From: an uncultured virus (IMG/VR IMGVR_UViG_3300008255_000125)
Taxonomy: Duplodnaviria > Heunggongvirae > Uroviricota > Caudoviricetes
IMG/VR virus record: IMGVR_UViG_3300008255_000125
DNA: 20,000 nt
Strand: one strand, 5' to 3'
The translations under genes and the position numbers were made by a program. Below, one piece after another: positions 797 through 9,397 of this stretch (position 1 is its first letter; each line of letters begins with the position of its first letter). The notes under the pieces were generated by a model. That model saw nothing but the letters and a program-made list of their open reading frames with translations, had not been told where the DNA came from and did not search any database.

Positions 797-1112
797 TATA
801 ATGTGTAAGGTTCTGGGCATTTATTATTATTAAAAATAAGTTCGAAACAATAATGTCTGCCACGAGAAATCGTAATTCTCGTGAGACCAAGTTAACTAGA
901 CAGGCGTAGTAATACGTTACATAAGGAAAATTAAAAGATATTTAAATTTATAAAGATTGATCGTCTTTATAAGTTTTTAAAATGTTTAATTAGAATTATG
1001 GTCGAAAGAACGCTTATATTTAATAATAACAAGAAGAATAATAGAAGAGAAAAATTCAAAAGATTTCTCGCTCTATCAAGTATTATTCGGGCCCAGAACC
1101 TTACACATTATA
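797..1112 (+). ncRNA. Putative ~316 nt structured RNA closed by a perfect 22 bp terminal stem
   Basis: 797-818 TATAATGTGTAAGGTTCTGGGC is the exact reverse complement of 1091-1112. Nested stems: 824-840/1013-1029, 861-868/876-883, 904-917 (GUAA tetraloop), 944-957/963-976 (two G-U pairs on + strand), 1036-1043/1081-1088. No ORF in the supplied track. Confidence 0.7.
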
Positions 1113-3092: not shown

Positions 3093-3416
3093 ATGTCAAA
3101 ATGTGTACCAGATAGATACTTAATTCCAAAAGAATTAAAAAAAACGACACGTTACACAGACGAGCAAAGAGCGAATGTAAAAATTCTTTATGAAAAAGGA
3201 AATAGCATTCGCTCAATATCTCGTGAAATACCAATGAGTAGAAGAATGGTTCAATTCATTCTATTCCCAGAACGTGCATTATTAGCTAAAAAGAACTTTG
3301 CAATACGACAAAAAGATGGAAGATATAGATATGAAACAAAGAAACAAAGTAACTTAGTTCAACAAGTTCGAAGTCGAAAACGTCAAATGTTGGACAAATT
3401 AATAAAAAAAATATGA
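3093..3416 (+). CDS. Basic helix-turn-helix DNA-binding protein
   Basis: YTDEQRANVKILYEKGNSIRSISREIPMSRRMVQFIL fits an HTH pattern. Confidence 0.75.
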   Translation: MSKCVPDRYLIPKELKKTTRYTDEQRANVKILYEKGNSIRSISREIPMSRRMVQFILFPERALLAKKNFAIRQKDGRYRYETKKQSNLVQQVRSRKRQMLDKLIKKI

Positions 3417-4261
3417 AATATCTCATCGGCATAACAGCCTCAAAAAGTAAAACTCAAAACTTCATAAATGATGCATACATAACAGCATTCACAACAGAAG
3501 TTACAACCCCAATAATAATTCCTAATATATTTCAATCAAAAAATGAAATAATAACAAAGGAAGATAAAAAGAAAATGTTAATCGATGTAATAAGATTAGC
3601 TGACACCTTAGACGCATTAGTATTGTCAGGAGGAGCTGATATTAGTCCAGTATTTTATAATAATAAAATAGAAGATTCTTCTTCTTTTAATTATCATAGA
3701 GATTACATGGAAACAGAATTGATTAAAGAATTCGTAAAAAGAAAAAAACCAATAATGGGAATTTGCAGAGGATTCCAATTATTAGGAATATCTTTCAAAT
3801 TAAATTACTTCCAACAAGATATATCAATTGCAGATGAACAGCATAATGGAAATTCAAGTGATATAAACCTAAGAACAGAACCAATGCACAGTGCATTTGT
3901 ATTTGGAGATTTTAGAACTTACTGTGAAAAACAAGGAATGGAAGAAAATAAAATGATAACAAATTCTTGGCATGAACAAGGTTTCACATTAAAACCAGAC
4001 GGAGGAAGAGTGAAAAATAAAGAAATAGAAGCTTACGTAACAGAAAGAGAAGAATTTTCCGATCTTCAAAAGGAAAGAATTAATACGTTTCCAAATATTG
4101 ACATAATAATGGCAACGAATTACGTAATAGAAGGATTTGAACATAAAACATACCCTATATTGGCATTCCAAAATCACCCTGAGGAATACACAAATAGCGT
4201 AGCTATTAATTATTTCATAGAAAAATACTTAATAAAACCAGTCCTTAAAAAGGAGGAATAA
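3413..4261 (+). CDS. Peptidase C26 / gamma-glutamyl-gamma-aminobutyrate hydrolase-like class I glutamine amidotransferase
   Basis: LDALVLSGGADISP, nucleophile elbow GICRGFQ, NSWHEQG and QNHPEE (Cys-His-Glu triad). Confidence 0.93.
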   Translation: MKYLIGITASKSKTQNFINDAYITAFTTEVTTPIIIPNIFQSKNEIITKEDKKKMLIDVIRLADTLDALVLSGGADISPVFYNNKIEDSSSFNYHRDYMETELIKEFVKRKKPIMGICRGFQLLGISFKLNYFQQDISIADEQHNGNSSDINLRTEPMHSAFVFGDFRTYCEKQGMEENKMITNSWHEQGFTLKPDGGRVKNKEIEAYVTEREEFSDLQKERINTFPNIDIIMATNYVIEGFEHKTYPILAFQNHPEEYTNSVAINYFIEKYLIKPVLKKEE

Positions 4262-6294: not shown

Positions 6295-7908
6295 ATGCCA
6301 AATGTAAAAAAAGGATTTGCTTTTAAGGTAGGAGCAGATCCAGAATTCGTTTTAACAATGCAAGGTAGGAAAGTAGACGCTAAACAAACCATGCAAATAG
6401 CCTTAAGTAGAAAAGCAGGATTTAAGGCAGATAGAAATGATATGGGATTCGACGTAGAACCATATGGAAATATCGGTTGGGATGGATCATCATCTACAGC
6501 TGAAATAAGACCTAAGGCATCCTATAAGCCACAAGATGTAGTAAACAACATAGGAGGAATGCTAAAAGGTTTTATAAAACACATTAAATTCTGTGATATG
6601 TCAACAATATCAGAACATAGTTCTGTAGGAGGACATATCCACCTAGAAGTTCCAAAAGGTGAAAAATGGACAACAGAAAAAAAGAATACTCTCCACAGGA
6701 GAATGGCTTCTTTTTATCTACCATTATTAATCACAGAAAATAAAACTAATCTTAATTTAAGATTAAAGCAAAATTACGGAGCATTAAAAGACAGTAGAAT
6801 TGAACAGAAATTCAAATATGAAGATGGATCACCAGGATTCACATATGAATTTAGAGTCCCTTCAGCAGAGTGGTTAACAACACCTAAAATAGCTCAAGCA
6901 ACAATAGCTTATATGGGAGTTGTTTATCATGAAATAATGAAACATCCAAAGAATTTCACAAAATTCAATGATATTGTCTACAAAAGCGATAAACAAGGAG
7001 ATGCACTACAAACATTAGCAATAATGGAATTTGATGTATTAACACAAAGCATCCTAAATAAAGTAAAAAGATATATTAGAACATTCGAAATGTATCCATA
7101 TTATAAAGATGAAATTGAATATCTATTTAACTCAAAACAGGTAGTTAAAGATAAGCAAAAAGCAGATTATAATATTGCCTTAGGGTGGAATTTGATAGGA
7201 AAAACAATACCAAAGAAATCAGAAATCCTAGCTTCAAAGAAAAAAATACAAGGAATAGCAGCTCAAAAGGATTTCGACAACTTAAAATCTGTAATAAACA
7301 TTCACTATAATGCTGATACAAACGTAGCATTATTTGCAGATAGTTTAAAAGATAGAGTTGCCGCTTTCAATTGGAAACTTAAAAATAATTATTACCTATT
7401 CGGAATGAGAAAAGGAATAGATACAATTATTGCAAAAAATCTTAAAAAAGAATTCTTAACAGGACAAAAGGTTATTAAAACAATCCTAGAAAAAGATTAT
7501 ATAGATAGATTATTTGACAAAATGGGAACAAGATTCAATACTAATAGCGGAATGTTAAACAATCCAACATTAGATTTTATGACAGGAAAAATAAAAGACA
7601 TGAGAGAATCAGTCATAGTTATCGGAATACCATACTCAATGAGAATAGAAGAAAATATTAAACCATTCCTAAACTTTATTTGGTCACTAGAGAAAGGAGA
7701 CGTCCAAAAAATGAATAAAAAGGACGAGAACAAATTAATTGATGATACTGAATTACCATTAGAACAAAAAGGAGAAATATATAGAATCCTAACGAAACAA
7801 ATGGAAATAAATCAAGAAGTTGTCATGGATACAGGCTCACATAGTCTTCAAAATCACGAAAGAGCTGTAAACGAAATGATAAATGAATGCCAAACAGAAG
7901 GACAATAA
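6295..7908 (+). CDS. phiEco32-like COOH-NH2 ligase type 2 (glutamine synthetase/GCS fold) with long C-terminal extension
   Basis: GADPEF, DG...AEIRP, GGHIH and YEFR motifs in family order; adjacent to a class II GATase. Confidence 0.88.
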   Translation: MPNVKKGFAFKVGADPEFVLTMQGRKVDAKQTMQIALSRKAGFKADRNDMGFDVEPYGNIGWDGSSSTAEIRPKASYKPQDVVNNIGGMLKGFIKHIKFCDMSTISEHSSVGGHIHLEVPKGEKWTTEKKNTLHRRMASFYLPLLITENKTNLNLRLKQNYGALKDSRIEQKFKYEDGSPGFTYEFRVPSAEWLTTPKIAQATIAYMGVVYHEIMKHPKNFTKFNDIVYKSDKQGDALQTLAIMEFDVLTQSILNKVKRYIRTFEMYPYYKDEIEYLFNSKQVVKDKQKADYNIALGWNLIGKTIPKKSEILASKKKIQGIAAQKDFDNLKSVINIHYNADTNVALFADSLKDRVAAFNWKLKNNYYLFGMRKGIDTIIAKNLKKEFLTGQKVIKTILEKDYIDRLFDKMGTRFNTNSGMLNNPTLDFMTGKIKDMRESVIVIGIPYSMRIEENIKPFLNFIWSLEKGDVQKMNKKDENKLIDDTELPLEQKGEIYRILTKQMEINQEVVMDTGSHSLQNHERAVNEMINECQTEGQ

Positions 7909-7936
7909 TATTATCAATTAATAAATTAAAACAATT

Positions 7937-9397
7937 ATGTGTGGATTAATCGCAGGGTTCAGTACAACTACACCCAAAACAAAAAGCGCTAAGGCTACCA
8001 AAGCTGTAAGTATAAACGATCTAATTATTAATCAATATGAAGATCAATACAATAGAGGTCAAAAAGGATTTGGGATAGTAAGAATAGCTAAAAACGGAAA
8101 AGTAGATCTAGACAGAGCAACGGAACCTCAAAAATTCCTATTAGATCTATATATGAAACCAGCCACTATGATAGTAGCACATCATAGAACACCAACATCA
8201 ACTGAAAATAAAATACAACAAACACACCCAATCAAAGTATCAAATAAACAATTAAAATTTGATTATTATGTAGTTCATAATGGAATGATCAGTAATGATG
8301 AAGAATTAAAAAAGAAACATGAAAAAGAAGGATTTGTATACACAACAAAGTGTATAGAATATGTAAGTAAATATTACAGAAATGATCCAAAGACAAAATG
8401 GAATGATTCAGAAGCAATAGCTATAGAATTAGCTCTATTTATAGAAGGAAAAATAAAAGCAATAAGAACAGATAACTCAGCAGCTTTTATAGTTGTTCAA
8501 GTAAGTAAAAAAGCAGGAATAGCAAAAAGATGCTTCTTTGGAAGAAATGGTTTTAGTAGTGCATTAAACATGTCTAAAACTAAAGGAACATTACTTATCT
8601 CAAGTGAAGGTAAAGGAGATGAAGTTAAAGAAAATAAACTATATTCATTTAACGTAAGAGACGAAAAAATGAAATTAGAATCTAAAGCTATTCCATTCGA
8701 AAAAGAAAAAGTGATAGAAGTTAAAACAACAACATTAACAACAGTTGAAAAAACAGAGCCAACCAAAAAAGAAGTAGAATCATTAACATGTGAACAAGCT
8801 ACTTTAATTCCAATAGAAAACGAACCAATAACCGAAAAAGATAAAGTTGTAACACCATATGAATTAAGAGCGTGGATAGACGTAGACACAGATCCAATCT
8901 TAGATTTAGATTTCAACGCAGATATATTTACAGATAAAAAATATAAAGAAAATCTATGCGAAGAATTTAGCTTTCAGTTAAAAGGTTCAGCTACAAATGA
9001 AATTAAAAGACAAATAACTGAAAAATTAGAAGAAGAAGTTGAAAAAATAACAGAACTAGCTGAAAACTTCAAAGATATTTGCCAAAGCAGTAAGATACAA
9101 GACCCAGAAAGAAATTTCTTCTTAGCTCAAATAGCAAATCAATTCAAAGCAATGGAGGCTATCACAGATATAGCTAGTGAAGAATATATAAAAGCTCAAA
9201 TCATCGAAGATAAAGAAGAAATAGCTGATTATAACGCTGGATTTCATCTAGATGATATGGCATATTCAAAAGAAACAGGAATGCCAGATTATGATGTTGG
9301 TTATAGAAGTAGAGAAGGAGTGACACATATTCACGGAGGTCACAGATATGGACAAGGAATAAGAGATGATGATGATTACGGAATAGATAGATTCTAA
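7937..9397 (+). CDS. Class II (Ntn) glutamine amidotransferase-domain protein with acidic C-terminal region
   Basis: N-terminal MCG nucleophile, RG, HHRTPT, THP, HNG, DSE; no SIS, PRTase or asparagine synthase domain follows. Confidence 0.92.
   Translation: MCGLIAGFSTTTPKTKSAKATKAVSINDLIINQYEDQYNRGQKGFGIVRIAKNGKVDLDRATEPQKFLLDLYMKPATMIVAHHRTPTSTENKIQQTHPIKVSNKQLKFDYYVVHNGMISNDEELKKKHEKEGFVYTTKCIEYVSKYYRNDPKTKWNDSEAIAIELALFIEGKIKAIRTDNSAAFIVVQVSKKAGIAKRCFFGRNGFSSALNMSKTKGTLLISSEGKGDEVKENKLYSFNVRDEKMKLESKAIPFEKEKVIEVKTTTLTTVEKTEPTKKEVESLTCEQATLIPIENEPITEKDKVVTPYELRAWIDVDTDPILDLDFNADIFTDKKYKENLCEEFSFQLKGSATNEIKRQITEKLEEEVEKITELAENFKDICQSSKIQDPERNFFLAQIANQFKAMEAITDIASEEYIKAQIIEDKEEIADYNAGFHLDDMAYSKETGMPDYDVGYRSREGVTHIHGGHRYGQGIRDDDDYGIDRF

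Follow-up and report, generated by a model that had tools for sequence, protein, structure and literature searches.

A large structured RNA-type element behind phage rtcB that appears to represent a new RNA family

Large phage non-coding RNAs supported by covariation are rare, and several are now known either as ribozymes or as ornate assemblies of RNA. Long stems formed by the two ends of an embedded RNA are familiar from the RNase III processing stems of pre-rRNA and of phage T7. RNase III, present in most bacteria, leaves 5'-phosphate and 3'-hydroxyl ends that are not joined by RtcB, the enzyme that joins 3'-phosphate or cyclic-phosphate ends to 5'-hydroxyl ends. GOLLD and ROOL, in the available part of Weinberg et al. 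(2017, PMC5737381), are large structured RNAs of phages that lie near tRNA-related genes and are probably co-transcribed. Likewise, YrlA and YrlB of the rtcB/rsr operons are described in the available part of Chen et al. (2014, PMC4201824) as ncRNAs neighbouring rtcB, for which a scaffold role is proposed and whose 5' and 3' ends pair, and the accessible portion of PMC10690425 reports candidate RNAs of 29-151 nt, one of which lies upstream of RtcB genes. The element considered here resembles GOLLD and ROOL on the one hand and YrlA and YrlB on the other in these respects, and its ends form a long perfect stem as in pre-rRNA and phage T7, although the RNA enclosed by this stem appears to be new and its cleavage is putative. 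Of known RNAs, the large orphan ones of phages, GOLLD and ROOL among them, are nearest to it in kind; it is, however, smaller, does not match their models and is so far seen in one phage clade.

The window, a 20,000-nucleotide (20-kb) stretch of phage-like DNA, opens within rtcB, the 3' part of which occupies positions 1-789 on the + strand (PF01139, E 4.2e-83; 5' end outside the window) and ends with a TAA stop at 787-789. The nearest relative is a 73.7-kb IMG/VR contig (L001, identical with G001), 74% complete, which has capsid and portal genes, a matching gene order around rtcB and an RtcB 82% identical to that of the window. As the original prediction held, a 316-nt non-coding stretch with complementary ends (797-1112) begins 7 nt past the rtcB stop; its closing stem, P1 (797-818/1091-1112), is an exact 22 bp and the sole perfect inverted repeat of at least 14 bp within a 1-kb span across the 20-kb window. 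No reading frame is common to the elements of the window and L001. An ORF of 59 aa and no known family (1129-1308, +) starts 16 nt past the end of P1; searched against the ESM Atlas it gave scores of 0.76 or less only, it recurs in L001 at 155 nt 3' of the element, and there is a relative (L064) from which the RNA element is absent. A promoter search of the + strand between 600 and 1400 found none, and the element is without promoter or terminator of its own. A promoter-like site on the minus strand (1107-1135), with its -10 box inside the 3' arm of P1, is probably due to chance, because the number of such sites is below that in shuffles. Further along the window, a + block (6295-9397 and 3413-4261) carries genes for a phiEco32-like COOH-NH2 ligase, a class II glutamine amidotransferase-like protein and a peptidase C26; this block is common to the related phage, where another such ligase is encoded upstream of rtcB.

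The minimum free energy (MFE) fold of the + strand has a z of -8.66, and none of 100 shuffles was equally good. The 17-bp arm with one mismatch that had been predicted within P1 was confirmed at 824-840/1013-1029, and the predicted hairpins at 861-883, 904-917 (loop GUAA), 929-991 and 1036-1088 are all in this fold. The 5' arm of P1 (797-818) is conserved in sequence (19/20 identical in L001), and the 3' arm (1091-1112) differs in L001 by two A-to-G changes, which yield U.G pairs, and by one compensatory change. Stacked beneath P1 from 824 to 841 are the AU-rich helices P2 (824-834/1019-1029) and P3 (836-841/1012-1017), where L001 forms a similar AU-rich stem in a register of its own, and a conserved single-stranded linker follows at 842-853 (11 of 12 positions identical in L001). 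The invariant helix P4 (854-859/897-902) spans 854-902, encloses hairpin A (861-883, with invariant loop bases 871-876) as well as an invariant run at 881-893, and competes with an alternative pairing, 855-858/884-887. Beyond it lie hairpin B with its GNRA loop (904-917) and an invariant run at 916-928, in which 919-923 may pair with 997-1002 under a purine-rich internal loop and 916-920 could pair with loop A as a pseudoknot. The long hairpin C (929-991) has two 3-nt bulges, an invariant tip (955-965) and a self-complementary loop, for which the loop-loop duplex is calculated at -4.8 kcal/mol. The 3' hairpin at 1036-1088 is regarded as optional, given that it is missing from the L001 homologue.

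Folding energy does not tell the strand, because the minus strand scores equally well, both for the whole element (z -9.24) and for the core only (z -5.0 on + versus -5.1 on minus). The strand is addressed instead by comparison of sequences. Both partners have changed in nine pairs: 864/880 and 867/877 in hairpin A, 906/915, 907/914 and 908/913 in hairpin B, 945/975, 948/972 and 953/967 in hairpin C, and 801/1108 in P1. Counted by the tool on two sequences, such pairs number five, a modest figure that 16 of 500 shuffles reach (slid controls gave 0-1), and in L001 five pairs of the core no longer match. Among one-sided changes, 10 keep the pair on the + strand through G.U as against one C.A (p 0.006); three of these 10 are G.U pairs of the window itself, the source of the structure, and without them the ratio is 7/8 (p about 0.035). 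Similarly, a partial variant from the read archives (X2 record 7) has five new G.U pairs in hairpin C among the differences listed, and the tetraloop keeps the GNRA form in three variants (GUAA, GUAA and GCAA). P4 does not vary and therefore shows no covariation, nor was any found in the pseudoknot candidates, which likewise never vary in the sequences compared. Conservation of the unpaired core is high (46/51 positions identical between the window and L001, as against 334/543 four-fold sites in five genes in common; p 1.4e-5), and invariant runs occupy 838-844, 846-863, 871-876, 881-893, 897-903, 916-928 and 955-965. As read from the aligned sequences, the pattern is characteristic of a structured, functional RNA encoded on the + strand. 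Covariation and unpaired-core conservation thus uphold the prediction of a conserved structured RNA-type element; of the accompanying proposal that selection acts on the + strand at the RNA level, the part resting on comparative changes (G.U pairs, GNRA loop) stood, whereas folding energy lent it nothing.

The comparative set comprises two full sequences (the window and L001) plus partial variants. The L001 homologue lies 6 nt past its rtcB stop (blastn E 1.5e-55; 202 bits with a covariance model), and element length in the phage group is 250-320 bases. Contigs from read archives contain variants in two further studies (groundwater P2 and manure P3), a tally that omits run X1 as a possible source run. 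X2 record 7 has 70 differences over rtcB and the greater part of the element, and X4 record 25 takes in the element and the gene behind it (796-1259, 25 differences), its preceding 1.1 kb not aligning to rtcB; these archive differences are among those listed and were taken as complete for about 863-960 only. L001 and X2 record 7 are not independent, since several changes are common to both. The original prediction had called for homologues to be collected behind related rtcB genes. When 52 viral rtcB loci found with the window RtcB as query, 74 more and eight from the host group were reduced to 103 distinct 3' ends, the collection yielded one homologue from another record, that of L001, which is also the only one among the 52 viral loci; the other 102 ends are without the element. 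Covariance model R1 found it at none of the eight host-group loci and gave three significant matches in 100 sources, all of them the window or the L001 contig, weak matches in two further loci (L040 and L043) being coding DNA.

Wider searches gave the same picture. The best match in phage records had an E of 0.3 and none exceeded 16% cover, while a plasmid DNA search returned no true homologue. Exact-pattern scans of viral contigs gave 0, 1, 7 and 1 matches, in which the true ones are all the L001 contig and six others bear no likeness to the element on inspection. A scan of metagenome contigs gave two matches, the L001 contig and a false one in coding sequence (L062), and a scan of genome contigs gave 11, none scored by a two-sequence HMM; distant homologues could be missed by these scans because gapped patterns are strict. 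Scans for neighbouring genes found the L001 contig again, L064 without the RNA and nothing else. One copy is present in the window, one in the 73.7 kb of the related contig, none in 151 Patescibacteria genomes and one in 50 viral records. So far, then, the element appears limited to one phage clade.

Searches with Rfam 15 at the gathering threshold gave no match in the window, and when relaxed to E 10 the best match (E 7.2) lay outside the element and the best for L001 had an E of 8.7. No known family was thus matched by the covariance-model search that the original prediction had proposed, but this negative carries little weight within the clade, since none of ARAGORN, Rfam at gathering or RF00023 (E 10) picks up a tmRNA-like gene of the related phage (L155:9410-9791, -; 29.4-29.8 kb of G001) in which an acceptor stem, a T arm and a 21-codon tag frame ending in LAFV are visible by inspection. 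Families were therefore tested by their defining features. The Ro-binding motif of YrlA, GNCGAAN0-1G, lies near the 5' end according to the available part of PMC4201824, whereas in the element it occurs only at 1001-1008, in the 3' half, and is lost in L001; RF02553 has no match in G001, and a T-loop-like word at 840-848 is stemless and altered in L001. The element is also two to three times longer than YrlA and YrlB, has no D/T-arm module and is accompanied by no TROVE (Ro60/Rsr) gene in the 22 scanned ORFs of the window or in the incomplete contigs G001 and G002, so that membership in the Y RNAs, which had been cited as the ncRNA kind of rtcB operons, does not hold. For 6S RNA, RF00013 has no match and an HMM built from 16 Patescibacteria 6S-like matches misses the elements of both the window and L001. 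The Patescibacteria 6S-like RNAs themselves (L190-L206) are RF00013 matches in 17 of 101 genomes, four of them above the cut-off, with a CCCACCT-type core in common. Titles and abstract openings in the literature yielded no description of such an RNA, and none appears in the accessible portions of PMC5737381 or of PMC10690425, whose supplementary sequences may include some that overlap it; nor do matching terms occur in the available text of bioRxiv 10.64898/2026.10.21.760802. Given that each known family tested, including those taken up below, failed a defining feature, the element is ranked as what appears by sequence and fold to be a new RNA family.

The reading favoured here, tentatively and with chances somewhat short of even, is that of a trans-acting phage ncRNA, co-transcribed with rtcB, released at P1 in the manner of RNase III, and serving RNA repair, through a compact protein-binding core, as a scaffold or decoy. 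The element would be transcribed within the rtcB operon; co-transcription is likely because both full copies lie 6-7 nt behind rtcB and no + promoter was found. The 19-22-bp P1 would serve for processing, host RNase III cutting it as it does pre-rRNA stems, and its cleavage would free a stable RNA of 210-270 nt. RNase III is the obvious natural enzyme for a stem of this kind, and 98 of 101 Patescibacteria genomes encode it. A compact, possibly multimeric, protein-binding fold may be built jointly by the invariant junctions, the GNRA loop and the tip of hairpin C, which is self-complementary. The RNA might then act as scaffold or decoy within a phage kit for RNA repair, translation protection and counter-defence, a kit that would comprise RtcB, 22 or more tRNAs, the tmRNA-like gene and an RNA-repair HAD domain. 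The RNA-repair role is suggested by gene context, and processing, partner and role are all proposed from sequence. The conservation of the P1 5' arm (19/20) exceeds what a plain processing stem would need and is explained by none of the readings considered.

The original prediction had gone further, proposing an RtcB substrate or a circular RNA, and this was not supported. The link to RtcB is neither common nor obligatory, since one of 103 rtcB ends has the element and X4 record 25 has it without rtcB, and the 59-aa downstream ORF is as constant a neighbour of the element as rtcB is. Circularisation by RtcB is possible; it finds no support, because RNase III would leave the wrong ends and no known self-cleaving core was found in or around the element, and the flanks, in which no conserved sequence was found outside P1, suggest no self-cutting motif. 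RtcB is at most a candidate ligase, weakly indicated, and otherwise a co-expressed neighbour. A more ambitious proposal, in which the element would found a new class of ribozyme or ribonucleoprotein working with phage RtcB, whether released at P1 or self-cut, circularised, or guiding repair or decoying host tRNA-cutting defences, with the second large RNA described below as another such solution, is speculative and has a rather small chance of being right.

Two other explanations are unlikely in equal degree. In the first, the element would be a new ribozyme or intron-like RNA whose core cuts itself or a partner to give 2',3'-cyclic phosphate and 5'-hydroxyl ends, with P1 holding the ends while RtcB seals a circle or an mRNA. 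Like a typical catalytic core, the element has long unpaired runs without variation, a GNRA loop and possible pseudoknots; in both phages only 6-7 nt separate it from the rtcB stop; and few Patescibacteria have an RtcB (8 of 401 genomes at E 1e-40), so that the phage copy could have a phage-specific substrate. Further, P4 and a second short helix, 885-889/999-1003, can be drawn in the P3/P7-like pseudoknot topology of a group I core. The P7-like helix, however, has a C.A mismatch in L001 and a pairing probability of 0.03 or less, the P4-P6 region would be only 25 nt with a single 23-nt hairpin, the element is not inside a gene, and RF00028 has matches elsewhere and none at the element. Cores of the hammerhead, twister, pistol, hatchet, hairpin and HDV ribozymes were likewise absent (Rfam at E 10 and regular expressions); a word like HDV L3 at 876-883 has no P3, and X2 record 7 does not keep it. 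The unconserved flanks and the X4 record lacking an upstream rtcB also speak against this explanation.

In the second, the element would act in cis on its mRNA, stabilising the rtcB message or separating the downstream genes and tuning their translation. This accords with the lack of its own promoter and terminator and with the short distance from the end of P1 to the next ATG, 16 nt in the window and 8 nt in L001. Yet a processing site needs a hairpin only and not a 180-nt core in which 90% of unpaired bases are conserved, a stem of 19-22 bp is too stable for switching, and the gene immediately 3' of the element is not the same in the two phages.

Less likely again is a strongly diverged housekeeping RNA, most plausibly derived from RNase P RNA and serving the phage tRNA cluster. 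The related phage has such a cluster, which lies some 9 kb upstream, on the same strand, and numbers more than 20 tRNAs (22 tRNAs in the contig by ARAGORN, 21 by Rfam), and the tmRNA-like gene overlooked by the tools makes their misses weak evidence; RNase P RNA (RF00010, RF00011) is also of similar size, has a closing stem and would suit a tRNA-rich phage. Four short RNase P-like words occur in order, and in L001 the + chain scores above all of 150 shuffles. In the window, however, 50 of 150 shuffles scored as high, and the minus strand of L001 also scores (3/150 as high), with a different motif placement. Moreover, neither element contains the CR-I and CR-V patterns that 28 of 30 Patescibacteria RNase P RNAs have; the P4 pseudoknot cannot form, and no helix between 923-935 and 1008-1017 in that register is common to the two elements. 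RF00010 and RF00011 find nothing at the element, although RF00010 finds 60 of 61 host-group RNase P RNAs, and 6S motifs are missing as well. Were the element nevertheless a diverged known RNA, it would mean that this phage clade still hides RNAs of housekeeping type from standard tools, as it does the tmRNA-like gene.

An element working at the DNA level is very unlikely, whether as an insertion of MITE type bounded by terminal inverted repeats or as a structure in single-stranded DNA. The P1 sequence is conserved, and the perfect 22-bp ends start and finish with TA in the window, where the sequence is AT-rich and the TA is part of the stem. Presence and absence between similar flanks might also be cited, given a contig of run X1 that runs from the rtcB end to the downstream ORF through 9.6 kb of other sequence (a 22-nt match only). 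Against this, the dispersed copies by which a MITE would be recognised were not found: the element is single-copy in both the window and G001, and therefore no active MITE. L001 has no target duplication, the same site has been kept while synonymous sites diverged to 62%, and internal covariation, G.U bias and the GNRA loop likewise count against it. An orphan retron-like ncRNA that decoys a host retron reverse transcriptase is highly improbable: paired ends, short hairpins and one long hairpin are the msr-msd layout, which the element resembles overall, but no reverse transcriptase is present in the window or in G001 (74% complete) and G002, and the one-sided changes of the long hairpin, G.U on the + strand, would be mismatches in a cDNA copy.

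The element is short enough for in vitro transcription and a candidate enzyme adjoins it, so that the substrates of phage RtcB other than tRNA, and the function of large phage ncRNAs, can be tested directly. Besides its tRNAs, the related phage encodes an RNA-repair domain (HAD_SAK_2), and it also has SAM synthetase and S-adenosylhomocysteine hydrolase (L157:2842-5744, -), GroES, a GroEL orthologue and a pilin-like N-methyl protein. A Patescibacteria host is a guess from gene content; the GroEL is 38-51% identical to Patescibacteria GroELs, which does not confirm it. More broadly, the position behind rtcB in phages is often occupied by a gene for an RNA, either a tRNA or a second large RNA. 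A tRNA gene lies within 50 nt behind rtcB at six of 47 loci scanned (L006, L013, L014, L018, L019 and L039), and in five of the six it is tRNA-Pro UGG. The second large RNA is an unrelated 329-nt non-coding element directly behind rtcB (L002:3842-4170, +; identical in L003), with a perfect 13-bp closing stem, an upstream promoter-like TTGACA..TATAAC and a fold z of -5.3 on the + and -3.3 on the minus strand. It has no homologue in Rfam or phage records, is not matched by covariance model R1 and gave two chance matches of 27-37 nt only in 401 Patescibacteria genomes. At another locus (L133:2536-2920, +), the sequence behind rtcB contains several copies of a short repeated motif together with a tRNA-like gene, the anticodon loop of which is split by an insert of about 50 nt that carries a permuted copy of the motif.
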